DNA of 64,000 nucleotides from Gammaproteobacteria bacterium. Lineage in GTDB: Bacteria > Cyanobacteriota > Vampirovibrionia > Vampirovibrionales > JAJTHC01. This document shows positions 2,897 through 42,150 of the stretch, piece by piece. A program made the position numbers and the translations under genes. Each line of letters opens with the position of its first letter. The stretch's first letter is position 1. Location of the stretch: positions 3,546-67,545 of the forward strand of contig JBEISK010000005.1 in the NCBI GenBank assembly GCA_040375445.1, read 5' to 3'. A model generated the notes under the pieces. It did no database searches. It saw only the letters and a program-made list of their open reading frames with translations, and was not told where the DNA came from.

Positions 2897-3400
2897 TTAT
2901 ATTTTGATGTCGACAAAAAGGCTTTTTCGTGTGGCATAAGCTCGTTCAATGGCAGATTGATCCACGCCCACAAAACCGGCCTTCTCAGCGATGGATTGAA
3001 TGTCTCCTACAGGGAGACCAAAACGTCCTTGTGGAAGTAGTTGAGCTGGGGAAAGGTTTCTATTTCTAGGGGGCTGTGTAGGTGACTGTGTCTCAATAAA
3101 ATCTACTTGCGATTGGGCTTGATTTTGAAAGCGGTTGTAGTCTTGCTGACGAAGTTCAGGACTTAGAACGGCAGATGTTTGTGGAGGGGGGGGGACTTCA
3201 ACACGTCCACTAGTGGGCATTGCTCGATTAGACGTTTCGGATGAAAGGATTTGTGTTTCTTGCAAGTTTTGAGAAAAAACGTCAGGAGCAGTCGTTTTAG
3301 GGGGGATATTCGTTTGTTGAATGCGTTCTCGAACGGCTTTAAGGCGTTCCATATTCAATTTGGCTTGCGTCCCATTAGACGAAATTTGTGTCATCATCAT
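2897..3400 (-). CDS. Hypothetical protein upstream of flgN-flgK
   Basis: ORF in track (2897..3478); likely start at MMMTQ; low-complexity N-terminal two thirds. Confidence 0.6.
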   Translation of the reverse strand: MMMTQISSNGTQAKLNMERLKAVRERIQQTNIPPKTTAPDVFSQNLQETQILSSETSNRAMPTSGRVEVPPPPQTSAVLSPELRQQDYNRFQNQAQSQVDFIETQSPTQPPRNRNLSPAQLLPQGRFGLPVGDIQSIAEKAGFVGVDQSAIERAYATRKSLFVDIKI

Positions 3401-3535
3401 TCGGTTGTTCTCTCTCTTTAATGTCGGCAGTGGTGTTAGTTGAAGGTATCCTTTAGCAGTATGACGCCTTTCGTACAATGCCTTGATGCACCTTTAGACG
3501 TATTTTTTGTATCCACAGGTTAGATAAAGCTTCCT

Positions 3536-3639
3536 TGTCCCCTCTCCTAATTTTAGGAGAGGGAAGAGAACGTCGCTAGACGTTCGAGGGTGAGGTTAAA
3601 CCTTAGACTCCGTTTGTGGGTTTAACCGCCCCCTAACCC
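3536..3639. repeat. BoxC/REP-like palindromic repeat, family A (partial, inverted relative to 10667 copy)
   Basis: tgtcccctctcctaattttaggagaggg hairpin, then the reverse complement of the 10667-10794 body. Confidence 0.85.
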
Positions 3640-3654
3640 GTCGAAGCTAAAGCT

Positions 3655-7438: not shown

Positions 7439-7516
7439 GCCTTCTTTGATGTTACTCTATTATAATAGGGAGAGGGTTCAAAGAACTCCATTACTATGAA
7501 GATAAAGGATCTAACG

Positions 7517-8035
7517 ATGAAAAATGTTTCCATTACCCAATTTTCTGCGTTTGCTTTAGCCATTACGCTTGCTTGTGCGAGTACTTCTGCCTTTGCCGAA
7601 GGCGGAGGAGGTCAATACCAAGCCCAACGTCAGCAAATGCAACAGCAACGTCAAAGTAATCAAGCCCAATGGCAACAACAACGTGAGTCGAATCAAGCCC
7701 AAATGCAACAGCAAAAAGCCCAGTGGGAACAGCAGAAGCAAGCGGGTCAAGCGCAGCGTCAACAAATGCAAGCCCAGCGTGAATCGATGAAGACTCAAAT
7801 GGAACAGCAACGTGCGGAACGTCAAGCTCAAATGCAAGCCAAACAACAAGAAAGACAAGCCCAACACGCCCAGCGTCAGCAAGACATGCAGGCTCGTCAG
7901 CAACAGTTTGAGCAAAGAAGTCAAGAACGTCAAGCGAAAATGAATGAAATGCAGGCTCAACAAGCCCAACGTCAAACTCAAATGCAAGCTCGTCAACAAC
8001 AGTTCCAACAGCGTCAAACCGCTAGACCTCAATAG
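7517..8035 (+). CDS. Secreted Gln/Arg-rich coiled-coil protein
   Basis: AAAGGA RBS; signal peptide ending TSAFA-EG; mature region almost only Q/R/A/M/E. Confidence 0.8.
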   Translation: MKNVSITQFSAFALAITLACASTSAFAEGGGGQYQAQRQQMQQQRQSNQAQWQQQRESNQAQMQQQKAQWEQQKQAGQAQRQQMQAQRESMKTQMEQQRAERQAQMQAKQQERQAQHAQRQQDMQARQQQFEQRSQERQAKMNEMQAQQAQRQTQMQARQQQFQQRQTARPQ

Positions 8036-8233: not shown

Positions 8234-9001
8234 ATGAAAGCACTTTTTTCAAAACAAGCTTTGACTTTTGTCCTCGCCATGACTTTTAGTTTGGTCGGAC
8301 TGAATGCTGTTCATGCGATTGTTGTACAAAGTCAAAATGGTAATGTGGCTGATGAACAAGCCATTGCCGCTGAAATGGCACGTCTTGACGCACTTGCCGC
8401 TCAACAAGCAGCGGCTCAAGCGGCAGCGGCTCAAGCGGCCCAACAGGCGGCGGCCCAACAAGCAGCAGCTCAAGCGGCAGCGTACCAAGCGGCCCAACAG
8501 GCGGCGGCCCAACAAGCAGCAGCTCAACAGGCAGCGGCCGCAGCGGCGGCTCAACAAGCAGCTATAAATGCGGCAGCGGCTCAAGCATCTCAACTGGCGG
8601 CTCAACAAGCAGAAATAGCAAGACGAGCAGGTTTAACGCAAGGGCAACGTGATGCTGAAGATGCTGCTATTGCAGCTCAACAAGCGGCGGCTCAAGCGGC
8701 TCAAGCAGCAGCGGCGGCTCAAGCGGCTCAAGCAGCGGCGGCGGCTCAAGCGGCTCAACAAGCGGCTCAACAAGCGGCTCAAGCAGCGGCGGATCAAGCG
8801 GCGGCGGCTCAAGCGGCTCAACAAGCAGCGGCTCAAGCAGCGGCTCAAGCAGCGGCGGATCAAGCGGCTCAACAAGCAGCGGCTACAACGGCTCGCCTTG
8901 CACCATTTACTAAGCCTGAGAAAGTTAGCTTAGATATGGCAGCACAAAGTACGCTTTCACCTCAACGTCAGCTTAAAGCAAGAACTCAAAATTGTACATA
9001 A
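8234..9001 (+). CDS. Secreted Ala/Gln-rich repetitive helical protein
   Basis: AAGGA RBS; signal peptide ending NAVHA; QAAAAQ repeats encoded by caagcggcggct-type microrepeats. Confidence 0.8.
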   Translation: MKALFSKQALTFVLAMTFSLVGLNAVHAIVVQSQNGNVADEQAIAAEMARLDALAAQQAAAQAAAAQAAQQAAAQQAAAQAAAYQAAQQAAAQQAAAQQAAAAAAAQQAAINAAAAQASQLAAQQAEIARRAGLTQGQRDAEDAAIAAQQAAAQAAQAAAAAQAAQAAAAAQAAQQAAQQAAQAAADQAAAAQAAQQAAAQAAAQAAADQAAQQAAATTARLAPFTKPEKVSLDMAAQSTLSPQRQLKARTQNCT

Positions 9002-10666: not shown

Positions 10667-10794
10667 TGTCCCCCTCCTAATTTTAGGAGGGGGTTAGGGG
10701 GCGGTTAAACTCACCAACAGCGTCTAGGGTTTAACCTCACCCTCGAACGTCTAACGACGTTCTCTTCCCTCTCCTAAAATTAGGAGAGGGGACA
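10667..10794. repeat. Full-length family A element (REPIN/MITE-like, terminal inverted repeats)
   Basis: Left end tgtccccctcctaattttaggagggg; right end ccctctcctaaaattaggagaggggaca. Confidence 0.9.
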
Positions 10795-10928
10795 GGACTT
10801 TCACAAAATCCTATATAGCATAACGGAATTGTAAAAGATTTACAAACAAATAAAGACAAGCGTTGCAAAATATGATATGCTGGTTTCATCTTGAAGTCTG
10901 AATGAAGATTTCAAAGCTATGAGGAAAT

Positions 10929-15360: not shown

Positions 15361-15490
15361 TTGTCCCCCCTCCTGATTTTAGGAGGGGGTTAGGGGGCGG
15401 TTAAATCCTCAAACGAAGTCTAGGGTTTAACCTCACCTCGAACGTCTGAAGACGTTCTCTGCCCTCTCCTAAAATTAGGAGAGGGGACAA
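15361..15490. repeat. Full-length family A element
   Basis: Colinear near-copy of 10667-10794 with the same terminal inverted repeats. Confidence 0.9.
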
Positions 15491-15528
15491 GACAAGAACA
15501 CCCCTTCAAGAAAAAGGAAGACACCCCC

Positions 15529-16804: not shown

Positions 16805-17610
16805 TGGCAGGTTTTGAATCGTTATTACAAGGCTTTCACGTCTTACATGCCCAAGCCAATGGAGGCATTGATGCGGGGCTTTTGATGTTATGTCGCTTTG
16901 GTGGATTCATCAGCATTGCCCCCGTACTAAGCCGTAAGGATATGCCCCCCCAATTTAAAATTGGGTTGCTCTTAATGCTTACCTTTGCGATGATGTCTCA
17001 TCCTTCGGTGCAGGCATCCGCCAATATCTTGAAAAGCACCGTCATTACAGAGTTTATGATGCTTATGGTCATCAACATTGTGCTAGGCTTATTCCTTGGG
17101 TTTGCCGTACGACTTATTTTTGAAGCGGTGTCTATGGCAGGCGGATTCATTACCATGCAAATCGGGCTTCAAATGGCGAGTATGATGGATCCTTCTACCA
17201 AGCAAAGTTCAGCGATTATGGGGCCTATTTTCAGTGGTGTTGCGTCAATTATTTTTGTCTACGTCGGAGGCATTGAACTATTGCTTAAAACACTGGACAA
17301 AAGCCTAGGACTGGTGCCGTTGCACGTGTTGAATGTGGCGTTTTTTAAGGTGATTACGGTCTATCAGTGGATTGATACATCGGCGTCGATTATTCCGCTG
17401 GCCATGTTGATTTCCGCACCGTTTTATATTACGACGATTTTGATGGATTGTATTTTAGGCATCGTGAACAAAACCGCTCAACAGATCCCTGTGTTTCAGT
17501 TGAGTGCGAGCATCAAACCCCTATTGGGTTTGATTATCTTTTTCGTGACGGTACCGACCTTGTTTCCCCTCATCCGCCATATAATGATCACCATGTTGCT
17601 GCGGATTTAA
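16804..17610 (+). CDS. fliR: Type III export gate protein FliR/SctT
   Basis: RFGGFISIAPVLS, MAGGFITMQIGLQMASMMDP, KTAQQIPVFQLSASIK; 1-nt overlap with fliQ. Confidence 0.9.
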   Translation: MAGFESLLQGFHVLHAQANGGIDAGLLMLCRFGGFISIAPVLSRKDMPPQFKIGLLLMLTFAMMSHPSVQASANILKSTVITEFMMLMVINIVLGLFLGFAVRLIFEAVSMAGGFITMQIGLQMASMMDPSTKQSSAIMGPIFSGVASIIFVYVGGIELLLKTLDKSLGLVPLHVLNVAFFKVITVYQWIDTSASIIPLAMLISAPFYITTILMDCILGIVNKTAQQIPVFQLSASIKPLLGLIIFFVTVPTLFPLIRHIMITMLLRI

Positions 17611-17620
17611 GCATATTATT

Positions 17621-17648
17621 CCCTCTCCTAATTTTAGGAGAGGGGACA
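17621..17648. repeat. Single family A hairpin
   Basis: ccctctcctaattttaggagaggggaca. Confidence 0.8.
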
Positions 17649-17793
17649 AAGCCGTTTGCTTTACAACCAAAAAAACATGGGTTTTAGGCACTAGTCAAAA
17701 GAAGCTTCCCTTTGTCATAATGAAAAAGAGTAGCTCTTTGAAAATTAACAAAAAACAGACGTGAGGGTCAAGAAATCGACTCAAATCCCTTTA

Positions 17794-17941
17794 TTGTGTG
17801 TGTCAAAAAACGAGTTTTATGTGTCAGAAATAGGGGTTTCGTGTGACGAGAATCGGTATTTCGTGTGTCGAAAATAGGGGTTTCGTGTGTCAGAAATGAG
17901 GGTTTCGTGTGTCGAAAATTAGATTTCGTGTGTCGGAAATT
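17794..17941. repeat. Seven direct repeats with 21-22 bp period (iteron-like)
   Basis: Core TTTCGTGTGTC(A/G) starting at 17794, 17815, 17837, 17859, 17881, 17903, 17924 (first two degenerate). Confidence 0.85.
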
Positions 17942-19304: not shown

Positions 19305-19530
19305 GCAGGCGTCCAAGCACTAAATCCGAGCGGGTGAGCGTACTGCGAATCCCCGAGCGATTTTGCGGACGTCGTGCAAAGGAATGATGCGAGGAGGTGG
19401 GGATTCAGGGGGGATTTTCAAGGGGGGACGAAGGGGAGGAGAAACGCAATGCGTCCTTCCCCGTCCCCCCTTGAACCGCCTTTGGGGGTTTGGGGAGTCT
19501 TTGGCGGCACAAAGACCCCCGAGCACCAGC
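19305..19530 (+). repeat. GC-rich structured repeat, family C, copy 2
   Basis: Aligns end to end with the reverse complement of 27374-27584. Confidence 0.9.
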
Positions 19531-19706: not shown

Positions 19707-22142
19707 ATGTTTTTTAATAAAAAAGAAGACGCCCATTCATCAAAAAAAAAGGTTAATACACTGGCTCCCGCCTTTCGCTATCCCAAAGTTAAAAATCGAG
19801 AGAAAAATCTCTTAACGCAAGATCCCCCTTCTTTTAATGATGATATTGACAACTACCTTCCTGAATACAATCCCACGGCTCACTTGAAAGTTGACCCCCC
19901 TTCATTAAATCTAAATCCAGATAGTTTACCTCCTTTAGTAAAGCCTGCAACACAGGAGTCGCCTATTTTTAGCTTAGAAGACGATTTGGAGACCAATCCT
20001 GAACTCACGACAAGCCTTTTTTTGGAAGAAGACCCTTCTTCCCTTGAACAGGAAAGTTCTTTTTCACCCATCTTTTCTGTTGAAACAGAAGGGGAATCCC
20101 CTCATTTTATGAAAGAAATAGAATCCGTATCCCTAGAAACGCCTATAACCGTATTGAGCGAGCCTGCGTTTAACTTGCCAAGTGAGATACCAAGCCTTAG
20201 TTCTTATGAAGCACCGCTTTCTTTTGAAGCCACGGATTCAGACGTAGAAAACGTCTATGAAACGGTATTGACTCATGAAATCGAAGATCTGTCTAAACAA
20301 ACTGTACGTGAAGAAGAGCATTTACTCAGTCCTCATGTGGCGAAACCTGCTCCTGAAAAGTTGACGCCAGCGGAAGAACTTTCGATTCAAGACCGTACCC
20401 TCGCGTTTGAAAATGAAGATCACTATTATAATCCCCTTGCCATTGGCGAAACCCTGCCAAGCTATCGCCTCGCCGAAACACAGGCACAAAAGCCGATAGA
20501 CACAACAGAGCTGGATGTTTTTGAAGATTTAGAAGAAGCAGATTTAGACTTACAAGAAAGCTTTGCCGTGGCTCAAAAAAGCAGTGAAGCGTTAGAAGCT
20601 GCTTTTAGCGTTAGCCCTACTGTTGAAGCCTTTAAAGCAGTCGAAGACCCTGTAGAAGATGCCGTTTTTGAAGAGGAAGCATCCGTTGAAGTTGTTTTTG
20701 AAGTAGAGCCTTCTAACGACCCGCCCGTTTTAAGTCCGCAGGAAGAAGACAGTCCCTTTTCGTTTCTTTCCATTGAAGAACCGCCTTCTTTAAGCGAACT
20801 GGAGACAACCGCTCTTTCAGATGTTTTTGAAACAGATATTGATGCATCTTTAGATTCGTCCCTGAATACTTCTTTAGATACCATCTTCGATACTTCAGTA
20901 GAAGCAGAAGCTCCCCCTGAAGAACCTCCCTTTATCCCTATGGATGAGAACACCTTTGACTTTTCACTCTTTTTGGATGAACACCCTGAAGCGGATACAC
21001 CCCTTATTGCTGAGGAAAGTAAGAACGTAGAAGCGGTTGTCCTTCCGAATCAAGACAATAACACGCAAGAGCTGTTTCCAAACAATCTCAATGACGATCT
21101 TGCCCCTTCAGGACGCATGGAGTCCCCCACAGAATCGCTTGAAAGTATTGAAGTGGTTGAGTTTCCAACAGAAGAAAACTTAGTAGTTGAAGACGATGAT
21201 GATTTACAATTCGTCGCCGAACCTTTTGCGTCACCTTCGGTGGAAACGAATTTCATTGCTTTGGAAGAAAATTTGGAAACTTTGTGCGATGCTAATCTTG
21301 AACTAGCGACTTTAGGCTTAGAAACGCCCTTAAATGAAGACCTTTCTGAAAAACGCTTGCCGGAAATTTTACCAGATGCCTTGCCTTTAGATGCCTTTTT
21401 TCTAGAAGAAGACGATCCCTTTGAAACCTTGCCCCCAGAGCTTAGCTCCCTTGAAGAAACAACCCCCACCCTTGCTTACGAAACCTTTCGCCAATTAGAA
21501 GAAGGTGATGATGGCTTAGATGCTGTTGAAAGCACTTTGTCCAACCACTTTTCCATTAAAAGCGATGCCGTGCTTGAAGATCCCAATGCTTTTTTAGATC
21601 CTAACTTGTTTTTTAGTTTAGATAGCTTGGAAGACGGATCAGCACCTGAAGAACTTTCAATGGATTTAGACCCTTTACCTGACTTTGAATCACTGGTGCC
21701 TATCTCCCCCCCTCACGTGTATACTTCGTCTGAAACCAGTGTGGCACAATCCAATAGAAATGAGCTTGCCACCCACGTCCCACCACAAGGCACCAGCGAA
21801 GTCACCTTAGAAGAATACGCCTGCTTGGCATTAGAAGATTTGGATATTCTCGTTTCACAACCTTTTCCTTATGGGGAAAGTCACTTGTACTTAGTTCACG
21901 TTAATAACATGTATGCCATTATTGCCCTCAAGCAAAACAAGTACACCTTCTTACAATCATTTTCAACCTTGCCTGAAGGCGTAGAAACTGCCAAAACAGC
22001 GGAAGGTCTAAAGTCAAAAGACGGCACGATCCAATTAACGTGGAATGCGTCTAGTTACAATGAACATATTTTTGACTTACAATTAGGCGCTTGGCACGCC
22101 TTAGTTGTAGAAGACAGCCAAAATATTACTTTGATGAAGTAG
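19707..22142 (+). CDS. Large highly acidic low-complexity protein with small C-terminal globular domain
   Basis: 811-aa ORF; E/D/P/S/L-rich for about 700 aa; last about 110 aa looks like beta-strands. Confidence 0.8.
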   Translation: MFFNKKEDAHSSKKKVNTLAPAFRYPKVKNREKNLLTQDPPSFNDDIDNYLPEYNPTAHLKVDPPSLNLNPDSLPPLVKPATQESPIFSLEDDLETNPELTTSLFLEEDPSSLEQESSFSPIFSVETEGESPHFMKEIESVSLETPITVLSEPAFNLPSEIPSLSSYEAPLSFEATDSDVENVYETVLTHEIEDLSKQTVREEEHLLSPHVAKPAPEKLTPAEELSIQDRTLAFENEDHYYNPLAIGETLPSYRLAETQAQKPIDTTELDVFEDLEEADLDLQESFAVAQKSSEALEAAFSVSPTVEAFKAVEDPVEDAVFEEEASVEVVFEVEPSNDPPVLSPQEEDSPFSFLSIEEPPSLSELETTALSDVFETDIDASLDSSLNTSLDTIFDTSVEAEAPPEEPPFIPMDENTFDFSLFLDEHPEADTPLIAEESKNVEAVVLPNQDNNTQELFPNNLNDDLAPSGRMESPTESLESIEVVEFPTEENLVVEDDDDLQFVAEPFASPSVETNFIALEENLETLCDANLELATLGLETPLNEDLSEKRLPEILPDALPLDAFFLEEDDPFETLPPELSSLEETTPTLAYETFRQLEEGDDGLDAVESTLSNHFSIKSDAVLEDPNAFLDPNLFFSLDSLEDGSAPEELSMDLDPLPDFESLVPISPPHVYTSSETSVAQSNRNELATHVPPQGTSEVTLEEYACLALEDLDILVSQPFPYGESHLYLVHVNNMYAIIALKQNKYTFLQSFSTLPEGVETAKTAEGLKSKDGTIQLTWNASSYNEHIFDLQLGAWHALVVEDSQNITLMK

Positions 22143-22713: not shown

Positions 22714-23427
22714 TTAATTAGAGCCGTTATTTAGTTGAGCTATTACTTCTCTTAAACCGTTATTTCTGTTTAACCAACCATTTAGGAATACACCTTGCCC
22801 TCGTGCGCGTGCAAAACGACGATAGGTTTGTTCCCTAATACGCAGATATTGATGAGGATCTTCTTGACTTTGGGACAGTAAACGTTCTGCTCGTTTAGGG
22901 CCCATGTTAACGGCTGTGTCAAAATGTACCATGGCTAGTGGCTGATTCGTTTGAGCAATTTTATCGGCACCACTGGCCCTCCAATAATCATTATAATAAA
23001 TATCTCGTATTTCTTTTTCAGAAATGTTTCTAACATATTTTGAAGTTAATCCTCTTCTTCCGCGGTAACTGTCATATGTTGCTTGTGTAATCCCTTGCAT
23101 GGTAGCTCCACCTGCATCATTGGGATGATTTGAAAATCCTCCTTCGAATCTTAAAGTATGTTCTAAGGCTACCTGAAAGTTAGAATCTGTTTCAGGGCTT
23201 GTGCCAGCTGTTTTAGGAGAGTCGGGGCCAGTCGTGTTTCTTGTAGCGAAAAAGGGTCCCTTAGATCCAGCACGACCAGACCACGGAAGTCCACTAGATG
23301 GCTCAAAGGTATCAACACGAGCAAGAGTGGTCGCGGGGGGGGCAGTCGTGGCGGGGGCGGATGATCGGGGGCGCGGTCCAATTTGTTGACTAGCACGTTC
23401 AAATCTATCTAAAGCAAAAACCATCAT
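22714..23427 (-). CDS. Glycoside hydrolase family 108 (lysozyme-like) with disordered N-terminus
   Basis: FEGGFSNHPNDAGGATMQGIT, IYYNDYW, FDTAVNMGP, FLNGWLNR. Confidence 0.88.
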   Translation of the reverse strand: MMVFALDRFERASQQIGPRPRSSAPATTAPPATTLARVDTFEPSSGLPWSGRAGSKGPFFATRNTTGPDSPKTAGTSPETDSNFQVALEHTLRFEGGFSNHPNDAGGATMQGITQATYDSYRGRRGLTSKYVRNISEKEIRDIYYNDYWRASGADKIAQTNQPLAMVHFDTAVNMGPKRAERLLSQSQEDPHQYLRIREQTYRRFARARGQGVFLNGWLNRNNGLREVIAQLNNGSN

Positions 23428-23559
23428 TTAATCGTCTCCTTCTGTGTGTGTTCGGGGGGGGATTTCGTGTTTTAATAAAAACAATCATTCCTTGCGAATT
23501 GCCCGCTTTAAGAAAGCTTTAAGCTTTCATAGAGGCCTTCTTTCTGCTATGCTGGGTGT

Positions 23560-25376: not shown

Positions 25377-26180
25377 TTACTGCCCGATTTGTTCAAACGT
25401 CGTTTGGGTCGGTTGGGCAAGATCTCTCCAAAATTTGGTAAGGGCTCGTTTGCCTTCTTGAAATTGTTCTACGACCCGCCCATGTGTTTCGCCTTGTTTG
25501 AGTGGAGGTAAGTTCAATATAACACTTCTAGAACCCTCTGGATTCGAATCTGAAGGAAGACGCAAATTCCCAAGTGAAGCGATCAGTTCTTGTTTGATTG
25601 CTAGTTTCCCTGGAACAATCAAAGAATCAGATGTTTCTTGAGCCCAAATTGTCGGAGCATTACCAAGTCCTGCTAATTCGGTGGTGTTAAACAAACTCGT
25701 ACTGGATCCTTTTTCATTTAACGAAGCAGGTGTTATTTGAGTGGTTAAACTAGCAGAAAGAGGTGCCGAGACAAAAGCCTGTAATTTGTTGGGAGTTTTT
25801 TTAGACAAATCTGCATGATCAATTCGACTCACTAACGTGGACGAGGAGTTTACCCTGCCGAAGTAGTAAAAAAGTTTTATCGCATGAGCCAAAACCTCGT
25901 CTATTGCAGAACCAAGTTCTCTATTTCTTGAAAACTGAATTTTTTGCTCCTTAGTACGAAAACGCAGAACGTCATTGGCTGGGGTAGTCGTCCTTCTTAT
26001 GCTTGGTACAATTTTTAAGGCCATGCCCTCCCAAGGGCTATCTCGTCCAACAAAGCTATTTACTAATTCCACATACCCTTTTACAAAGGCTCCCTGTGTC
26101 TTCGAATTAGCAAAGAGTAATCCTTGTCTTTGTTGAGTTGAGTTGAGTTGAGTTGAGTTGAGTTGGAGCGGACTGGACAT
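25377..26180 (-). CDS. Hypothetical protein with 5' (CAACT)6 tract; true start may be the out-of-frame ATG at 26197
   Basis: 267-aa ORF; stronger RBS (AGAGGA) precedes ATGs at 26200/26197 in another frame. Confidence 0.65.
   Translation of the reverse strand: MSSPLQLNSTQLNSTQQRQGLLFANSKTQGAFVKGYVELVNSFVGRDSPWEGMALKIVPSIRRTTTPANDVLRFRTKEQKIQFSRNRELGSAIDEVLAHAIKLFYYFGRVNSSSTLVSRIDHADLSKKTPNKLQAFVSAPLSASLTTQITPASLNEKGSSTSLFNTTELAGLGNAPTIWAQETSDSLIVPGKLAIKQELIASLGNLRLPSDSNPEGSRSVILNLPPLKQGETHGRVVEQFQEGKRALTKFWRDLAQPTQTTFEQIGQ
26136..26165 (-). repeat. Pentanucleotide SSR (CAACT)6
   Basis: Six perfect AGTTG units on the + strand. Confidence 0.95.
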
Positions 26181-26298
26181 AACCTACTAATGTTCATCAT
26201 AAAATCCTCTACATATTAAAAAACACAAAACACTAAAGATGCTATTGTAGTTTAATATGGTTAAATAGGGTTGTTTATGACAAAAGTGTTACAACTAT

Positions 26299-27373: not shown

Positions 27374-27584
27374 GCTGGTGGTCGTCAGAGACCTTTGCTC
27401 CGCCAAAGGTCTCCAACACCTCTAAAGGCGGTTTAAGGGGGGACGGGGGAGGACGTATTGCGTTTCTCCTCCCCTTCGTCCCCCCTTAAAAATCCCCCCT
27501 GAAACCCCACCTCGTCGCATCATTCCATTGCACGACGTCCGCAAAATGTCTCGGAAGCCTCGCATTTAGTGCTTGGACGCCTGC
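27374..27584 (-). repeat. GC-rich structured repeat, family C, copy 3
   Basis: Reverse complement aligns with 19305-19530; 27536-27572 is identical to 3768-3804. Confidence 0.9.
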
Positions 27585-34399: not shown

Positions 34400-34652
34400 G
34401 GTGATACCTCGTAAATACAAAGACAAATACATTAAAATTAAGAGCAAAATGCCGTACGTATTAAACAAATTACTTAGTAACGTAACTATTTAATAGTATA
34501 CGCCAAAGGGGTTTATTTTGGTTGCGATTGTAAAGTCATTTGCTAAAGATGTTACATTTTAGGCTTATTTACAAGTCACTTAGGCAATTTATGAGAAGAC
34601 CGCTTCTTTATTTAATTAAGTCACGTTTAATCAAAAGAAAGAGTCCTCCACT

Positions 34653-35024
34653 TTGCAAGAATTATTACGCACACGTTCTATTCATTCCTTTCTGCAATAC
34701 TGCTTTGGCCTGCCTTCATGGGTGCATGGTATTTTAATGTGCGTGGCTTTAAGTGTTTATAGTATGATGTCTCCCTTGTGGGGGCTGATTAAAGCCGCCT
34801 TTTCCCCTTACTTGGATGTAAACACTTTGACGCATTCGCCCGAACAGGCGATGCAAGCCTTAACGGAATTTGCCGACTTGATTGAGTTGAATCCTGATGT
34901 CGTGCAAGACTTGCAGTTAGCGCTTATGACTTATTTGATTTTTCACCTGATTTACATGATATTCATGTGGAAGTTTACCTTGTGGACGGTGGATGTCCTT
35001 AAGGAACGAGTCCACTCTGACTAG
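34653..35024 (+). CDS. Hypothetical membrane protein
   Basis: 123-aa ORF with two hydrophobic segments; start uncertain. Confidence 0.5.
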   Translation: MQELLRTRSIHSFLQYCFGLPSWVHGILMCVALSVYSMMSPLWGLIKAAFSPYLDVNTLTHSPEQAMQALTEFADLIELNPDVVQDLQLALMTYLIFHLIYMIFMWKFTLWTVDVLKERVHSD

Positions 35025-35209
35025 ATAGAGAGCCATTTTTAGAGTTTTATGTACAGGTTGCTAGACAAGGCGCCTAGATTTTTTGTGCGGGCGTGTGGAT
35101 TAAGTTTTGTAACAATTGTTTGTGACTGGCAGGATTTAAAATTGAGGGTGTTTTATACTGATGTCTTCCCCTAGACGTTCTTGTTCAATAAAACCTAAAG
35201 GATCTAACC

Positions 35210-35795
35210 ATGTTGTCTGTCTCCTCTCCTCTCCTCTCCTAATACACCCACTCGTGTCGCAAAGGGGGCTTCTCAGTCGGCTCATCAGCAACGAGACGGA
35301 GCACTCTTTAAGGCACTAGTTAACAATACCCATCCGAATCAAAACAAAATTATTTACACTCTTCCACCCTTAATACTTAGGTTATCCCCTGATATTATTC
35401 CAGCAAACGACCAAACAGGCTTTTTCTCAAATGTCAATACTTTCCCTGGAGGTACCTCTTTTAACTTTAAGAACTTCTACAGTTTTAGGATTAAGAGTCC
35501 GACTCAGAAAGGTTGGCTTATTGCAGTGGGAGAACATTTACCCAAAGTCAGAGCTATAGATGAAATAAGCCAGACTAAAGAAATTGTCAGTGACCCAAAA
35601 TTGAAAGAAGAACTAGATTCACTAGAGATTGAATTGGTTACAGATCTAGCAAAGCAAGTCCCTAATTACACGATTAAGAACAAAGAAGGTGTGCTTACAT
35701 TGATTCGAGATATTGTTCTAAGCTTGGGGGAGCCTTGGAGTCCAGAAAACATAGAGAAGGTTATAGCCAAAATGAATGAGTATTCCTTTTCTTAA
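35210..35795 (+). pseudogene. SSR-frameshifted (putatively phase-OFF) hypothetical gene
   Basis: AAAGGA RBS + ATG 35210 reads MLSVSSPLLS*; the frame from 35241 is stop-free (NTPTRVAKG...) into ORF 35526..35795; a (CTCCT)4 tract lies at the junction. Confidence 0.75.
35221..35240 (+). repeat. Pentanucleotide SSR (CTCCT)4
   Basis: ctcctctcctctcctctcct, starting 11 nt after the A of ATG 35210. Confidence 0.9.
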
Positions 35796-35852
35796 CGATT
35801 AAAAACAGACTTCTCTCCCTCTTGGCGAAATAAAAAAGGGAGAAACGTTTGA

Positions 35853-36959
35853 CTAAACGTTAAACCTAAAGTGCATGACATCGCCGTCTTTTGCGATGTA
35901 CTCTTTGCCTTCCAAACGGAGCTTGCCTGCTTCTTTGGCCCCTTTTTCCCCTTTGCACTGCACATAATCGTCATAGGCGGTGACTTCGGCTCGAATAAAG
36001 CCTTTTTCAAAATCCGTATGAATCACCCCTGCACACTGAGGTGCCGTAAAGCCTGCTTCAAACGGCCAAGCCCGTACTTCCTTCACGCCTGCCGTAAAAT
36101 ACGTATACAAGCCCAACAAACGATACGTTTCCGTAATCAGCGAATCCACGCCACTGGCTTTGACGCCCAAACTTTCTAAGTAGCTTTGCTTTTCAGCTTC
36201 ATCATCCAACGCCGAAAGTTCCGCTTCAATTTGAGCCGAAATCGCCACCACAGGACGCCCCTCTTCTTTCGCTCGTTCCACCAACGCCTTATAATGGGGA
36301 TTCGCTAGAGGATCCGCCAATTCTTCTTCGGCGACATTGCCTGCATAAATCAAGGGTTTTACCGTCAATAAGCCTGAACGCTTTAAAAGCTCGGTTTCAT
36401 CGGCATCAAACTCATGGGCATGTTGACTAATCATTTCGCCCCCTTCTAAGAAAGGCACCAAACGTTGCATTAAAGCGAGTTCAGATTTGGCATCCGTTTC
36501 GACTTTGGCCGATTTCTGCAAACGAGGCAAGCGTTTTTCAATGGATGTCACATCCGACATGCAAAGCTCTAGCACGATGGTATCTACATCACGACAAGGG
36601 TTCACGCTATTTTCAACGTGCTGAATGTTGTCGTCTTCAAAGCAACGCACGACTTGCACAATGGCATCCACTTCTCGGATGTTCGCTAAGAATTGATTGC
36701 CCAAGCCTTCGCCTTTGGAAGCCCCTCGAACCAGTCCAGCAATATCCACAAACTCAAACACGGCAGGAATCACTCGTTCCGTTTTCACCAAGTCTTGCAA
36801 GACATACATACGAGGGTCTGGCACTTTAACGATGCCTGTATTCGGTTCAATGGTACAAAACGGGTAGTTGGCACTTTCGGCTTGAAAGGTCGAGGTAAGA
36901 GCGTTGAAGAGGGTTGATTTTCCGACGTTGGGCAATCCAACAATACCAGCTTTAAGCAT
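35853..36959 (-). CDS. ychF: Ribosome-binding ATPase YchF
   Basis: GIVGLPNVGKSTLFNALT, ANYPFCTIEPN, DIAGLVRGASKGEGLGNQFL, TGS-domain end DGDVMHFRFNV. Confidence 0.98.
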   Translation of the reverse strand: MLKAGIVGLPNVGKSTLFNALTSTFQAESANYPFCTIEPNTGIVKVPDPRMYVLQDLVKTERVIPAVFEFVDIAGLVRGASKGEGLGNQFLANIREVDAIVQVVRCFEDDNIQHVENSVNPCRDVDTIVLELCMSDVTSIEKRLPRLQKSAKVETDAKSELALMQRLVPFLEGGEMISQHAHEFDADETELLKRSGLLTVKPLIYAGNVAEEELADPLANPHYKALVERAKEEGRPVVAISAQIEAELSALDDEAEKQSYLESLGVKASGVDSLITETYRLLGLYTYFTAGVKEVRAWPFEAGFTAPQCAGVIHTDFEKGFIRAEVTAYDDYVQCKGEKGAKEAGKLRLEGKEYIAKDGDVMHFRFNV

Positions 36960-37130: not shown

Positions 37131-37847
37131 CTAGTAAGGTGAATACTGTTGAGGCATTGGGCTGTAAGAACCGCCGTAGCTAGGAGGCTGTGGTTGAGGC
37201 ATGCCATATCCGCCCTGTTGAGCGTAAGGATCCATGCTGTAGCCGCCATAGCCTTGGCCCATGCCGTAGCCGCCCTGTTGAGCGTAAGGATCCATGCCGT
37301 AGCCACCGTAGCCTTGGTCCATGCCGTAGCCGCCCTGTTGAGCGTAGCCGCCGTAAGCACCATAACCGCCTTGGTAAGGTACTCCAGCAGACCAACCTTG
37401 TGGAATATAACGCGGATCGTTGAGACCCATGGTGTTGTAACCTTGAGCATCGCGACGTAAGGAAGGAAACGTGGAAATAGGTTGGAAGAATCCAGGGAAG
37501 CTTGCCGTAGTTGGGTTACTTGCCAAACCGCCTTGTTCTGGGGTTCCCCATGAACTAAGACTGAATCCAGGTGTAATAGCTGCTCCGATAACGGAAGACA
37601 AGGAGTATTCGTTACCGTACAATCCAGGGTTACCCGTAAACAAAGCAATTTGACCCGCTAAGTCACGAGATAAAGCAGCACCGACTCGGCTGATGTTTTG
37701 TGGAAGTTGTAAGCTGGAAGAAACGTTGACTAACTCACTCGAAGGAGGGTTAGCAAACTGACTGCCACCTTGCTGTCCATAAGCTTGGTAGCCTTGTGGT
37801 TGACCGTAGCCTTGTGGTTGGGCATACTGTGGGTTGTTCATATACAT
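37131..37847 (-). CDS. Gly/Tyr/Gln/Pro-rich low-complexity protein
   Basis: AGAGGA upstream; QPQGYG and YAQQGGYGMxQGYGGY repeats. Confidence 0.75.
   Translation of the reverse strand: MYMNNPQYAQPQGYGQPQGYQAYGQQGGSQFANPPSSELVNVSSSLQLPQNISRVGAALSRDLAGQIALFTGNPGLYGNEYSLSSVIGAAITPGFSLSSWGTPEQGGLASNPTTASFPGFFQPISTFPSLRRDAQGYNTMGLNDPRYIPQGWSAGVPYQGGYGAYGGYAQQGGYGMDQGYGGYGMDPYAQQGGYGMGQGYGGYSMDPYAQQGGYGMPQPQPPSYGGSYSPMPQQYSPY
37201..37346. repeat. Intragenic 60-bp tandem repeat (about 2.4 copies)
   Basis: atgcc.ta.ccgccctgttgagcgta recurs at 37201, 37261, 37321. Confidence 0.85.
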
Positions 37848-38023
37848 TGTGATTAAAAGTCCTCTATTTTCTACTCTATTGTTAAGGTGTTGTTAATGTG
37901 TTCTAAAGGTTGTGTGTCGTAAAGATAAAACCTAAGTGAAGTCTATGTGCCTAAATAAAGTATTAAGGCATAATTAAATTGACGTTTTGATACATTTTGT
38001 TACAAAATGCTGTAGAAAGCTCT

Positions 38024-38125
38024 GTCCCCTCTCCTTGAGGAGAGGGCTAGGGAGAGGGGGGGATTTTTAAAACCCAGCGTTGACATCTACTCCCCACCCC
38101 AACCCTCCCCTTAAAGGGGAGGGAG
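38024..38125. repeat. BoxC-like inverted doublet (family A-related)
   Basis: ccctctccttgaggagagggctagggagagg ... ctccccaccccaaccctccccttaaaggggaggga. Confidence 0.75.
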
Positions 38126-38295
38126 TAAAACCACTTTCGCAGAATCTTCCAAAGAGGTTACAATCCAGTAACAATCATTAAACTTTACTTATGAACTAGA
38201 CGAAGTAAATAAGATACCCTATACTTGTAGTATAAGGTCAATCTTTGGGTAGCTCCGCTACCTATTTCAGTTGAATAATGAGGAGGATCTAGCAT

Positions 38296-38772
38296 ATGAT
38301 GACTAGACTGTCGATTCATGGCCGTAACATCGAATTAACGTCTGCGATTAAAGACGCCCTATTCGAAAAAACGGAACGTGTGTTTTCCCATTTTGACTTT
38401 ATTCAAAGCGTGGATATTCACCTGTCTGTTCAAAAAAACCCCCGAATTAGTGAAGCGCATTCTGCCGAAGCCTTGGTGCATGTCAACGGTGGCATGGTGA
38501 AGGTGGAAGCATCGAGTGAAAATTTGTATGCGTCGATTGATTTATTGATTGACAAAATCATGCGTTCCCTTACCAAGTACAAGTCTAAACATTTAATGAG
38601 ACAAAAATCGGCTCGTAGTCAAGGTGGCGAAACCTTACGAGTACAAGGACTTGATCAAACTGTTTCAGGCTATGAAGAAGATGCCTACCACATTGAGTTA
38701 GAACTGAGTAATGACAATGAAGCCGCCGCCTTTGCGGAAGCGGAAGTGCAAAGCATTCGCTATGCGTCTTAA
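38296..38772 (+). CDS. hpf: Ribosome hibernation promoting factor (HPF/RaiA)
   Basis: GAGGAGG RBS; IHGRNIELTSAIKD, ENLYASIDLLIDKIMRSLTKYKSK. Confidence 0.92.
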   Translation: MMTRLSIHGRNIELTSAIKDALFEKTERVFSHFDFIQSVDIHLSVQKNPRISEAHSAEALVHVNGGMVKVEASSENLYASIDLLIDKIMRSLTKYKSKHLMRQKSARSQGGETLRVQGLDQTVSGYEEDAYHIELELSNDNEAAAFAEAEVQSIRYAS

Positions 38773-38809
38773 CGGTCGTTTGGGTTTGCGACTAGATGAC
38801 TAAATACTT

Positions 38810-38840
38810 AAAGGGATGCTTCGAAAGGGCATCCCTTTTT
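38810..38840. terminator. Bidirectional intrinsic terminator
   Basis: aaagggatgc-ttcgaaagg-gcatccctttt between convergent genes. Confidence 0.75.
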
Positions 38841-38849
38841 GGTTTAGGG

Positions 38850-39494
38850 TTACTTTATCGACCGCTCTTTAAATACATATGAGAGTGCTTGAGACACTGG
38901 GTTAAAAGATTTTCTCGCTAATTTACATAACGGGGATTGCCAAAACGCATTGACGCCTTTTACCATATTGACCACACCAGTTGCTGTATCGACCAATTCT
39001 TTAGTTTCCATATTTTTTTTCAAAGCCGTTACCGCATTACTGAACTGCTGTAAATCAGGGTTCCTCATAGTTGCTCCTGAAAGCAATTCCTGCCCCACAA
39101 TTAAAAGATCTTGCAAGGATTTTTTATCAAGCACATCCTTTTTAATATTATCAATGGTATTTTCCATACTGTGTTGGCACGACTTTAAAGCGGCCATTTC
39201 GTTCATGTTAAAGGCCAACAAACCCAACGTGGCCACTTGTGTGGCAACTAAAAAAGGCAAGCCCCATTTCACATAAGCAGGCACAGGGGCTTCTTTACTT
39301 TCTTCATTACTTTTTTCAATCGAGTTTAACACCGCAAACAAACGAGCGTTCAAAGAGTTTTCATCCCGATGATGCCCTACATCCATCACAGGCTTCACGA
39401 CCGTCGCGGCAGGAGCCTGTGTCGAAGATCCTACTGGTAACGGCGGCAGGCTAGGCGGATATATCATTGAAGGTGAAGCAGGAAGGCTCGCCAT
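38850..39494 (-). CDS. Hypothetical protein, P/S-rich N-terminus and one central TM helix
   Basis: AGGA RBS before MASLPASP; WGLPFLVATQVATLGLLAF hydrophobic segment. Confidence 0.7.
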   Translation of the reverse strand: MASLPASPSMIYPPSLPPLPVGSSTQAPAATVVKPVMDVGHHRDENSLNARLFAVLNSIEKSNEESKEAPVPAYVKWGLPFLVATQVATLGLLAFNMNEMAALKSCQHSMENTIDNIKKDVLDKKSLQDLLIVGQELLSGATMRNPDLQQFSNAVTALKKNMETKELVDTATGVVNMVKGVNAFWQSPLCKLARKSFNPVSQALSYVFKERSIK

Positions 39495-39570
39495 AGATTT
39501 TCCTAACAGAATAAAAGGTTCCATTAGTCAGATAAAACACCCTAAAGCGTAAAAGATGCTAGCTAAACTT

Positions 39571-40554
39571 CTACAATGTGGGTTTCTCAAAATGAGTCGG
39601 GACATCCCACCGTGTGGGAGGCATTGGCTTCGGCAGGCTAGGCTTTAAAGCTTGATACGGCGAAACGATTTTCGCTTCCGTGTAAGGAAACAAGTCCTTC
39701 GAAGGGACAAAACTGCTATAGCAACGGTGTTTTTGACACACGGCGATCGTTACCTGCCCTGTCATTTCGTCCAAGTGAAAACGGGTCACAGGTCGCCCTT
39801 CCGTTTCATCTAGGCGTGCCTTCATCGTATCCACCCAGCCGATCTTGCCTCGCTGCGGATGCCGTGCATTTTCGTGTCGTAAGACGGCGGTCACCTTTGA
39901 AATCCCTTCGGGCGTGGCTTGACTTTCCATAATGGGCAAGACTGCCATGACCTTGCCTCCTTGGGTGACGATGATGAGATCCATTTGCTTGTTGAGTCGC
40001 TTAAGCTGCCCTAAGCTTTCATTTACAGGTGGATTCCCTTTTGAAAGGGACGATTGGGGGGCTTCTCGTAGGTTCACTTTTTGCGATCCGTCATTCCACT
40101 GCCCCAACTTAAATTGATAAATACCCGCCTTTAAGCTCATTTGATGCCATTTAACGGCATAGGGTAAGGTTCCCACAGCATAAGGGGTGTAATTGTTGAA
40201 GGCTTGTTCAGCGAAGGCTTCTAAGTCCACTTCTTCAAAGGGATGCTCCTTCGCATTCCAAAAGGAACGAGGGCCGTCGTCCTTAAAGCCATGCTTATTT
40301 TCGCTAGAACCAGGGTCGTCCCATGCGTTTTTATATCCACGAGATGCCCCCCAATGATCTAACGCCCAAGGGGTGTCGGGTTTGGCAAAAACAGGTTGCA
40401 CCGATTCAAAGCGTTCAGGCGCATGATACGGTTCATAAATGCCTAACGCCCTTACTTCACTTTTTGGGTAGGGTTCGTTTATGGCATGAGCAAAAGAGGT
40501 CGCCGTTGCGAAATAGAAAAAAGTAAAGGCAAATACAAAGGGATTCATGTTCAA
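39571..40554 (-). CDS. Hypothetical secreted protein
   Basis: Hydrophobic N-terminus ending SFAHA; 327 aa, no family recognised. Confidence 0.7.
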   Translation of the reverse strand: MNMNPFVFAFTFFYFATATSFAHAINEPYPKSEVRALGIYEPYHAPERFESVQPVFAKPDTPWALDHWGASRGYKNAWDDPGSSENKHGFKDDGPRSFWNAKEHPFEEVDLEAFAEQAFNNYTPYAVGTLPYAVKWHQMSLKAGIYQFKLGQWNDGSQKVNLREAPQSSLSKGNPPVNESLGQLKRLNKQMDLIIVTQGGKVMAVLPIMESQATPEGISKVTAVLRHENARHPQRGKIGWVDTMKARLDETEGRPVTRFHLDEMTGQVTIAVCQKHRCYSSFVPSKDLFPYTEAKIVSPYQALKPSLPKPMPPTRWDVPTHFEKPTL

Positions 40555-40596
40555 AGAAGTTATCCTTTAAATCATAAAAGCATCCATGCCTTATCA

Positions 40597-41262
40597 TTAA
40601 GTGTTTGGGCGTCCTTGCCTTAACTGTTGAATGGTTTCGCTCATGTTAGGAGCATTAAAAATCGCCGAGCCTGCCACAATCGTGTCGGCTCCTGCGGTTA
40701 ATATCTCGGCGATATTCGTCAATCCCACACCGCCATCCACTTCTAAGTGGATGCGTCTTTCACCAATGAGGGCTTTCGCCTGCTTGATCTTTTCTAAGCT
40801 GTACGGAATAAAAGCTTGTCCCCCAAATCCAGGGTTCACACTCATAATCAAGATTAAATCTAGATCGTCAATGACAGGTTCCAACACAGAAACAGGCGTA
40901 TGCGGATTCAAGGAAACCCCTGCTTTAACGCCTAAAGACTTAATCAACTGCAAAGTACGATGCAAATGCGTGCAAGCTTCCACATGGACGGTGAGAATAT
41001 CCGCCCCTGCCTTGGCAAAGTCGGGGATGAGGGCATCGGGTTTTTCAATCATCAAGTGAACATCCAACGGTAGGGTCGTGACTTGGCGTAAGGCGTGAAC
41101 AACAGGAGCCCCAATGGTCAGGTTCGGTACAAAGTGACCGTCCATCACATCCACATGAATCCAATCGGCTCCAGCGGATTCCAGTGTTTTTAAGGCATCG
41201 CCCAAGTAGGCAAAATCCGCAGAAAGAATGGAAGGGGCAATAAGAACAGGTGATTGAGGCAT
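40597..41262 (-). CDS. rpe: Ribulose-phosphate 3-epimerase
   Basis: IAPSILSADF, HVDVMDGHFVPNLT, DVHLMI, MSVNPGFGGQ, EVDGG, VAGSAIF. Confidence 0.98.
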   Translation of the reverse strand: MPQSPVLIAPSILSADFAYLGDALKTLESAGADWIHVDVMDGHFVPNLTIGAPVVHALRQVTTLPLDVHLMIEKPDALIPDFAKAGADILTVHVEACTHLHRTLQLIKSLGVKAGVSLNPHTPVSVLEPVIDDLDLILIMSVNPGFGGQAFIPYSLEKIKQAKALIGERRIHLEVDGGVGLTNIAEILTAGADTIVAGSAIFNAPNMSETIQQLRQGRPNT

Positions 41263-41337
41263 GACAGTTTCCTTATGCATTTTGAGAAGCATCGTAATCA
41301 TGATACACTAAACAAAGTTCTACAAAAATCTTCTTTG

Positions 41338-41368
41338 TCTTATTCCTCCTCCCTAAGGGAGAGAGGGT
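41338..41368. repeat. Family A-related hairpin fragment
   Basis: gtcttattcctcctccct is the reverse complement of the end of the 51632-51760 element. Confidence 0.55.
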
Positions 41369-41403
41369 AAAGTCTTCTATCAACGAAAGAAATTTATACA
41401 TTG

Positions 41404-42150
41404 ATGATGTCTAAAAAAGGAATCGCCCACTATTACAACATCTTCAAATATGACGTCGCCTTGCCGTTTTTTTCAAAGCAGTTAGCCCCTGCTTTTTTGA
41501 ATCATGTACGGTGGTGGTGGCGACGTTCGACTTGGCAAGTTCACTCTGAAACGCAAGCCTTACTAGATGCTGGCACGCCTGTTATTTTCGCTATTTGGCA
41601 TGGGCAAATGTTTACGCTGGTGCATCCGCAATGGATGAAAGGTGTCAGTGAATCGGATCAAACGTTGCCTCCTTATGTCTTGATTTCTCAAAGTCGGGAC
41701 GGTGATTTTATCGCCAATGTTGCCAAGCATATCGGATTCCCTCACAACATTCGAGGCGCTCACGGTCGTGGCGGGAGCAAAGCCGTGATGGCGATACAAA
41801 ATTTGTTCACCGAAAAGAAGGGGCATCTTATTTGCTTAATGGATGGACCTCGTGGGCCGAAGCATGAAGCGAAAAAGGGCATTGTGAACTTGGCGTTTCA
41901 GCTTGGTGTGCCAATTATTCCTGTCGCTGGGGTTACACCGCACCACTGGTTTAAGTTCTATTCGGCGTGGGACGATTTTGAGATTCCCGATATCGCCTTT
42001 CCCATTCATGTAGACTTAGGCAAGCCGATTTGGATTGAAGCCTCCGCCGATGAGGATGAAGGCGTGTTGGCGAAGGTCAATGAGACGTTGGTGTCTCATT
42101 TAAAGACGACGTTGTTGCGTTGTGGGAAGAATCCTCAAAATAGGCTTTAA
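41404..42150 (+). CDS. DUF374 / lysophospholipid acyltransferase family protein
   Basis: VIFAIWHG, LISQSRDGD, IRGAHGRGG, DGPRGP, GVPIIPV, WDDFEIP. Confidence 0.85.
   Translation: MMSKKGIAHYYNIFKYDVALPFFSKQLAPAFLNHVRWWWRRSTWQVHSETQALLDAGTPVIFAIWHGQMFTLVHPQWMKGVSESDQTLPPYVLISQSRDGDFIANVAKHIGFPHNIRGAHGRGGSKAVMAIQNLFTEKKGHLICLMDGPRGPKHEAKKGIVNLAFQLGVPIIPVAGVTPHHWFKFYSAWDDFEIPDIAFPIHVDLGKPIWIEASADEDEGVLAKVNETLVSHLKTTLLRCGKNPQNRL

Follow-up and report, generated by a model that had tools for sequence, protein, structure and literature searches.

A pentanucleotide repeat behind a native start codon as a probable translational switch in a Vampirovibrionales gene of no known family

Organisation of the locus

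The locus described here lies on the + strand at 35197-35795 of the window, i.e. of the whole stretch of 64,000 nucleotides that was analysed, and the features discussed in the following sections are:

35161..35163, + strand: third-frame ATG, open through the tract (ORF 35161..35319); no Shine-Dalgarno (SD)-like motif seen upstream; putative start, from frame arithmetic
35172..35207, + strand: three stops in the frame of the gene body upstream of the tract (TAG 35172-74, TAA 35196-98, TAA 35205-07)
35197..35202, + strand: SD-like AAAGGA, 7 nt before ATG 35210; same motif and spacing before ychF and other long ORFs
35210..35242, + strand: native start and the 10-codon product MLSVSSPLLS predicted for the OFF state; P0003, P0004, P0015 and P0008 begin ML(P/S)VSS or MFSVSS here
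35220..35240, + strand: frame-setting pentanucleotide repeat (TCTCC)4.2, found by Tandem Repeats Finder (TRF); beyond chance; length differs among relatives
35241..35795, + strand: gene body, 184 codons plus stop, in the +1 frame with respect to ATG 35210; homologues cover 96-99% of the 195-codon frame
35526..35795, + strand: 89-aa ORF with GTG start, the sole part reported by the ORF caller; like the stubs called in P0007, P0012, P0013 and P0014

Sequence reading places the AAAGGA at 35197-35202, followed by a 7-nt spacer and by an ATG at 35210-35212, whose frame reads ATG TTG TCT GTC TCC TCT CCT CTC CTC TCC TAA (MLSVSSPLLS) and ends at the TAA 35240-35242. The start context of ATG 35210 is genuine; the usual one in the window is an AAAGGA located 6-9 nt before the start codon, e.g. 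in front of ychF, and SD-like motifs precede 20 of its 39 long ATG ORFs. According to TRF the tract at 35220-35240 has a period of 5, 4.2 copies, 100% matches and the unit TCTCC, and it is the same tract as the (CTCCT)4 at 35221-35240. It lies inside the coding region 8 nt past ATG 35210, and its unit length is not a multiple of 3. The tract is no chance feature; a 15-mer comprising three units of the repeat is unique to it within the window (two overlapping matches), and was matched in none of 100 dinucleotide-preserving shuffles.

The frame of position 35241 is open from 35208, directly after the TAA 35205-07, to the TAA 35793-95 and thus spans 195 codons, a length reached by just 45 of the 5915 runs between stops that the window has in its six frames. 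As GTG 35526 is the first and only ATG, GTG or TTG in this frame, an ORF listing gives the 89-aa ORF alone. GTG 35526 itself has no well-spaced SD, the nearest candidate being an AAAGG about 15 nt upstream. By frame arithmetic, the body is joined in frame to ATG 35210 by 2, 5 or 8 units and to the third-frame ATG 35161 by 3 or 6 units, and with 4 units there are no canonical starts in frame with the body before GTG 35526. An earlier note on this DNA, made from the sequence alone, had described the ribosome binding site AAAGGA, ATG 35210, a (CTCCT)4 tract and a stop after 10 codons, and every one of these elements was confirmed by sequence reading and TRF. The same is true of the open frame of 35241 that was said to continue to 35795 into the tracked ORF; the statement that 5 (or 2) units would bring the gene into frame is arithmetically right, and 8 units also fit.

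Homologues, native start and tract length

Judged by its sequence relatives the 195-codon frame is a real gene, and homologues of 195-206 aa span it end to end. A word-indexed search returned four proteins of 200-227 aa with 60-85% identity, all four of which cover 96-99% of the frame, and when 1.84 billion cluster representatives were searched exhaustively with a profile, just six matches at E <= 0.001 were obtained. The profile search yielded P0008, a distant relative of 195 aa (29% identity, E = 4e-13). The family is therefore best described as real but small, and its most conserved motif in the alignments, NTPTRVAKGASxSAHQQRDGALF, occupies codons 1-25 of the body.

Five relatives, namely P0003, P0004, P0015 (a partial protein of 79 aa from an NCBI Vampirovibrionales MAG), the ORF on contig L001 and the distant P0008, start at the equivalent ATG and read in frame through the tract. 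The N-terminus of P0003 and P0004 is MLPVSSPLLSSPNTPTRV, with a tract part reading MLPVSSPLLSSPNTP, and that of P0015 is MLSVSSPLLSSPLLSSPNTPTRV, with a tract part reading MLSVSSPLLSSPLLSSPNTP, which corresponds to 5 and 8 units, respectively, as read from the 5-residue period of the peptides and not from DNA. P0008 begins with MFSVSSSLSSSP. L001 is a Vampirovibrionales MAG contig, the one confirmed of 27 pattern matches in a genome-contig scan, and here the units were counted on the DNA: ATG 212 adjoins a 51-nt CT tract of about 10 units with three interruptions and is in frame, giving a protein of 206 aa. Although their tracts differ, the bodies of L001 and P0004 are 99% identical in the N part and 90% identical in the C part. 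In P0006, a different N-terminus of 56 residues replaces the tract and the motif, and the protein is nearly identical to P0005 from FKALFDDTHP onward; it is either an assembly chimera or the result of a recombination at the 5′ end.

L001 is syntenic with the window, with ychF and a QGYG-rich protein gene following on the opposite strand, and its homology to the window sets in precisely at the tract, with 92.9% over 2.8 kb from position 35220 of the window on. The window therefore stems from a relative of the L001 organism.

The ON peptide that the earlier note had predicted, MLSVSSP(LLSSP)NTPTRVAKGAS, recurs near letter-for-letter in P0015 and in P0003/P0004. The note had also named homologues starting downstream of the tract and an invariant tract length as findings that would speak against a switch. 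What was found is that five relatives start at the equivalent ATG, and that the tract comprises 4 units in the window (OFF), 5 in P0003/P0004 (ON), 8 in P0015 (ON) and a longer, interrupted run of about 10 in L001 (ON), the ORF being intact in all of them. The gene was indeed missed by ORF callers, as had been supposed, since four relatives as well as the window's own record, P0011, are represented by the 89-aa stub alone. The interpretation as a contingency locus thus gains support from the starts of the homologues and from the variable tract length.

Out-of-frame alleles in relatives

P0002 (85% identical) and P0005 (60% identical), which like the stubs described below stem from independent assemblies, have the ATG in the shifted phase of the window, reading ...ACCLSPLLSSS... 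and ...ACFLSYPLLTSP..., respectively. In both, the start that was called is a leucine codon that lies further upstream in the body's frame and corresponds to a TTG at the equivalent position in the window, where the stops at 35172-35207 close the frame that P0002 and P0005 keep open. Because of this open frame, the alleles of P0002 and P0005 may be expressed by another route, and a classification as ON or OFF by the ATG alone may oversimplify.

A search for shorter proteins returned the window's own 89-aa stub together with P0007, P0012, P0013 and P0014 at 81-90% identity, P0013 being identical to the C-terminal 89 residues of P0002. Counting distinct sequences, six are non-ON (window, P0002/P0013, P0007, P0012, P0014 and P0005) and five are ON (P0003, P0004, L001, P0015 and P0008), with P0006 counted apart. 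In the close clade of the window (81-90% identity) all five distinct sequences are non-ON (window, P0002, P0007, P0012 and P0014); if one third of states were ON, zero ON out of five would have p ~0.13 by our own arithmetic. With all close relatives being non-ON, the OFF allele in the clade of the window may be a long-standing one. The tracts of the window and of P0002 are of equal length, which fits an OFF allele inherited across the clade as well as it fits a switch. At the tract end P0002 has SSS versus SSP in the window, so that its perfect run is probably shorter and could be in decay.

Sequence evolution of the gene

Rates were estimated with our own Nei-Gojobori script by comparing the window with L001. 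Over the 184 codons of the target gene dN/dS is 1.35 (dS 0.14, dN 0.19), with values of 0.52 for the first 25 codons, 0.99 for codons 26-95 and 2.38 for the last 89 codons, as compared to 0.039 for the neighbouring ychF and 0.135 for the QGYG protein. The non-synonymous excess of the target over ychF has a Fisher p of 1e-14, and the omega above 1 in the C part is suggestive but not significant (Fisher p = 0.06). Nucleotide identity between the window and L001 is 0.72-0.85 across the target gene versus 0.93-1.00 in most flanking genes. The target gene evolves fast yet stays open: in 20000 neutral simulations with the observed 88 substitutions the frame was open in 3.7% of the runs, and it is intact in every family member down to 29% identity. 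A dN/dS near 1 is, on the other hand, also expected of a pseudogene.

With respect to the two expression states, the OFF-OFF pair (window and P0002) has 23/25 identical residues in the motif and identities of 0.79 in the N part and 0.88 in the C part, the corresponding figures for the ON-ON pair (P0003 and P0004) being 25/25, 0.81 and 0.88. Conservation of the part before the GTG is not lower in the OFF-OFF than in the ON-ON pair, and no relaxation is seen in the OFF clade. L001 is nearest to P0004 in the N part (0.99) and nearest to P0003 in the C part (0.93), and for this reason the alleles look mosaic.

In addition, the 106 codons at 35208-35525 contain no ATG, GTG or TTG (P ~0.01 for the 95-codon N part, given the Leu/Val codon usage of the window). 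The N part of L001 (266-550) likewise has none except for the GTG equivalent to 35526, which lies inside the slice counted. An absence of these codons upstream of GTG 35526 would keep an OFF state tight, this being a post-hoc observation.

Protein family and product

The product is predicted from its sequence to be a soluble protein that lies outside known families and diversifies rapidly. It has neither a signal peptide nor a membrane segment, the maximum Kyte-Doolittle score over 10 residues being 0.79-1.19 within the first 35 residues. Pfam, NCBIfam and PADLOC yielded no family for the target or its homologues, no Pfam model scores above threshold for P0001, P0003 or P0008, a sequence search of the PDB gave nothing below E = 0.5, and P0003 had no tblastn match among plasmids and phages. 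A relationship to SpoVIF (PF14069) was rejected, as the 195-aa frame scores 16.2 bits and the 89-aa part 18.4 bits against a gathering cut-off of 27, and P0003 and P0008 do not match. The profile search also matched two giant proteins (E = 8e-7 and 1.5e-5) in 6 and 11 stretches, among them P0009, an ankyrin-repeat protein. An assignment to the ankyrin repeat proteins was not supported and is at most a lead, with an hhalign probability of 2% and no match of the Pfam ANK models to the family at E <= 0.1.

A second pentanucleotide locus

At a threshold of at least 3 units the window has just two SSRs with units of 4-8 nt, i.e. the target tract and a (GTTGA)6.8 at 26132-26165, which belongs to the following gene:

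25377..26210, - strand: second SSR gene, with ribosome binding site AGAGGA 26210-05, ATGATG 26200-26195, (AACTC)6 plus AAC 26165-26132, and an alternative ATG 26180

The tract makes up codons 13-24 of this gene. Its homologues P0016-P0019 start with MMN(I/L)(S/N)RL(C/L)PVR(S/P), followed by (NSTQL)n and NSTQQRQGLLF, and the number of units is 5 in three of them, 8 in P0017 and 6 in the window. The conserved start is MMNISRLCPVRS, and the tract of the window is out of frame with it; the 6-unit reading from this start is MMNISRLCPVRSNSTQLNSTQLNKDK...*, and from ATGATG 26200 with its AGAGGA the window reads MMNISRLCPVRSNSTQLNSTQLNKDKDYSLLIRRHREPL and then a stop. The body of 267 aa is in frame with ATG 26180 only, which has no evident SD. 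The protein matches no Pfam, NCBIfam or PADLOC family.

Both tracts of the window are thus situated just past a conserved start, vary by whole units among relatives and are shifted in the window, and both bodies begin with QQR(D/Q)G(A/L)LF. Homology of the two gene families was considered but is not supported (BLASTP E = 0.51; hhalign E = 0.008 with 5% probability over 38 columns), and what they have in common is limited to the short QQRxGxLF motif. A tblastn search found no paralogue of the target in the window, and a third copy of the QQRxGxLF motif was not found in a convincing ORF.

A putative translational switch and its alternatives

In our view the locus is probably an SSR-driven translational switch that is now OFF. 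The stretch at 35197-35795 would constitute one gene of about 200 codons with ATG 35210 as its native start, in which (TCTCC)n, located between codon 4 and the conserved body, would set the reading frame. The full protein would be made whenever n is 2, 5 or 8. With n = 4, as in the window, ribosomes starting at ATG 35210 would terminate at TAA 35240 after 10 codons, leaving the 184-codon body without a canonical start until GTG 35526. Slipped-strand mispairing at replication would add or remove whole 5-nt units and in this way turn the gene ON or OFF, i.e. bring about translational phase variation. By frame logic, a change in tract length is expected to alter protein expression. Slippage is the presumed mutational mechanism, and the change would have to be reversible and frequent enough to act as a switch within populations; the state of the gene in this genome is likewise taken to be truly OFF rather than leaky.

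A single slippage in the ancestor of the clade might instead have produced a fixed frameshift and hence a young pseudogene, with the tract as a mutational hot spot instead of a maintained switch and at most the 89-aa GTG ORF being made. Such a history would be in line with the non-ON state of all five distinct close relatives, with the equal tract length in the window and P0002, with the substitution in the P0002 tract, with a dN/dS of about 1 over the gene and with the three stops that close the frame of the body upstream of the tract in the window. However, the window, P0002 and P0005 all have an intact stretch of 106 codons in front of the GTG, the OFF-OFF pair agrees in 23/25 positions of the 25-residue motif, and the ratio of N- to C-part divergence in this pair equals that of the ON-ON pair. 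Moreover, the dN/dS of about 1 holds family-wide, with a frame that is kept down to 29% identity and is kept in 3.7% of the neutral simulations, GTG 35526 lacks a well-spaced SD, and the second locus has a tract of the same design. We therefore regard a fixed frameshift as unlikely. An error of the assembly or consensus, with a true count of 5 units and the gene being ON, appears highly improbable. The tract of 21 nt is far below read length, P0002, from an independent assembly, has the same out-of-frame length, four more relatives gave the 89-aa call alone, and the second locus is off by +1 unit and not by -1, which argues against a systematic collapse of repeats. Such an error is nevertheless conceivable in so far as repeats can be miscounted, a metagenomic consensus can hide heterogeneity, and the contigs around the gene are often short (the longest having 1317, 1327 and 1939 nt), L001 ending as close as 211 nt upstream of its ATG.

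Expression of the 4-unit allele in spite of its frame, be it by a ribosomal +1 or -5 shift before TAA 35240 or from a non-canonical start such as CTG 35217, is given very little weight here. It could explain why three lineages (window, P0002 and P0005) share the same out-of-frame phase and the same TAA end, the 5-nt periodic tract offers identical codons 5 nt back, and CTG 35217 is in the frame of the body. Yet neither a shift-prone heptamer of a known type nor a prfB-like CUU-UGA site is present, an SD-like stimulator is missing upstream of the stop, the tract is of the same sense as the anti-SD, the re-pairing from UCC to CCU is not cognate, CTG 35217 at 14 nt from the SD is too far away, and the region 35185-35320 has neither a significant RNA structure (z = -0.69) nor a match in Rfam. 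In programmed +1 frameshifting of the prfB type, a shift-prone codon precedes an in-frame stop and an SD-like stimulator lies upstream. This type was rejected for the site CUC UCC UAA, which allows no cognate +1 re-pairing and is preceded by a CU-rich and not an SD-like tract. An RNA element or riboswitch behind the conserved 5′ region was rejected, too, as Rfam gave nothing at E <= 1 in 34400-36200 and nothing at gathering score in the whole window, and as the RNA fold of 35185-35320 is no better than that of shuffled sequences. Pairing between the SD and the tract amounts to only 4 bp, and the tract has no fold as single-stranded DNA. A scan of 34400-35950 gave 3 promoter-like sites versus 3.3 expected, and no terminator.

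Comparison with known phase-variable systems

The closest analogue of the target appears to be the CTCTT repeat of the opa genes in Neisseria. According to the passages on opa in PMC3745409, this pentameric coding repeat is located in the leader-peptide region, and whole-unit changes restore or disrupt the reading frame. Common to both are a CT-rich pentanucleotide repeat a few codons past the ATG in the N-terminal coding region and a highly diverse protein body, the alleles of the target looking mosaic. However, the unit of the target is TCTCC/CTCCT and not CTCTT, there are only 4-8 perfect units at the target locus, the repeat encodes no signal-peptide core and the product has no membrane segment, and the host is an uncultured Vampirovibrionales bacterium and not a human pathogen. 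Membership in the Opa family was rejected, P0001, P0003 and P0008 having no Pfam match and no signal-peptide-like hydrophobic core.

A short pentanucleotide tract within an ORF is also found in hsdM of Haemophilus influenzae, where, as described in part of PMC2651432, a (GACGA)4 tract switches at a high rate and some strains have the gene truncated by an intragenic tract of 1-4 units; '3+ GACGA' is classed as hypermutable in Table 1 of PMC4235727. By analogy, a switching rate of this kind would be plausible at the target. In contrast to hsdM, a type I methyltransferase, the target belongs to no known family and has no PADLOC match. A third group of similar systems comprises 5′ SSR loci with starts in several frames, such as the lic loci of H. 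influenzae. As outlined in the section concerned of PMC4235727, multiple initiation codons in different frames upstream of a 5′ SSR result in graded expression. Two frames are likewise served by ATG 35210 and ATG 35161 at the target and by ATGATG 26200 and ATG 26180 at the second locus, where the window allele is in the frame of the second of these. In contrast to the known loci, ATG 35161 and ATG 26180 are putative starts that have no SD-like motif at normal spacing.

Significance for the Vampirovibrionales

The Vampirovibrionales are a non-photosynthetic sister lineage of the Cyanobacteria, the best-known member of which preys on algae. To our knowledge, almost all SSR contingency loci described so far are those of host-adapted pathogens and commensals. 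At the level of a keyword search, and within the portions of the literature so covered, no work linking Vampirovibrionales, Melainabacteria or Vampirovibrio with SSR phase variation was found, the matches being concerned with invertons, flagellins and TM7x. The locus thus seems to be a contingency switch in a bacterial group without a described example, and the target is a known kind of system in an unexpected lineage together with an unknown, fast-evolving protein family.

It is conceivable, if doubtful, that the Vampirovibrionales carry a set of contingency genes switched by slippage, with the shared N-terminal motif serving to target or export proteins that come into contact with prey, host or phage. 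The design common to both loci would then consist of a start codon, a pentanucleotide repeat, the conserved QQRxGxLF motif and a fast-diversifying mosaic body, the two genes themselves being unrelated or only remotely related. If true, this would be the first SSR phasome in the phylum and a new protein family under diversifying selection. Two loci within 64 kb, both encoding fast-evolving proteins of unknown family and both in a shifted state, suggest that stochastic on/off switching shapes the biology of the little-studied Vampirovibrionales. Since gene callers reduce the target to an 89-aa stub, both in the window and in four relatives, and the second locus is called from an ATG other than the start of its homologues, such genes are systematically mis-annotated in metagenome-assembled genomes.

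Genomic context and further repeats

Upstream of the tract, positions 1-245 of L001 and 35000-35219 of the window are not alignable, and the tract thus marks the breakpoint of homology. The ATG of L001, 211 nt upstream of which the contig ends, has no SD-like motif. In the 740-nt gap between minD and the target the window contains a 123-aa ORF (34653-35024, + strand), a candidate gene without a known family. The flagellar genes flgK, flgN, fliOPQR, flhA, fliH and fliF are found in the window among housekeeping genes.

Homopolymeric tracts comprise an A9 at 19742-19750, which lies in frame at a distance of 12 codons from the start of an 811-aa ORF without a Pfam family (19707..22142) and could likewise be a 5′ tract of variable length, a G9 at 3186-3194 inside the ORF 2897..3478 (- strand), and two G8 tracts at 23335-23342 and 23454-23461 near a glycosyl-hydrolase-108 gene (22714..23427, - strand), one about 90 nt inside it and the other 27 nt in front of its start. 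Palindromic elements sharing the core CCCTCTCCTAA(A/T)TTTAGGAGAGGG are repeated in the intergenic regions at 3514-3640, 10670-10798, 15366-15493 and 17595-17652, and resemble REP or MITE elements or terminators. There are also an inverted pair of 176 nt (19353-19528 and 27379-27554), direct pairs of 78-124 nt (3654/16245 and 3945/19455) and, between a fliR-like gene and gcpE/ispG, a tandem array of 6.6 copies of the 22-nt unit GTGTGTCAGAAATAGGGGTTTC at 17798-17940.

With respect to coding repeats, the ORFs 7496..8035 and 8234..9001 contain Gln/Ala-rich ones, and the gene for the Gln/Gly/Tyr-rich protein (window 37131-37847, - strand, 238 aa; L001 2163-2888, 241 aa), which has no known family, contains 60-nt tandem repeats at 37200-37346. 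When compared to L001, islands of low identity or with indels are located at 38020-38169, 38770-39220, 40420-40674 and 41275-41424 in a backbone that is otherwise 90-100% identical. These islands include the 3′ half of the gene 38850..39524 (- strand) as well as the 5′ end, a signal-peptide-like part, and the upstream region of the gene 39571..40554 (- strand).
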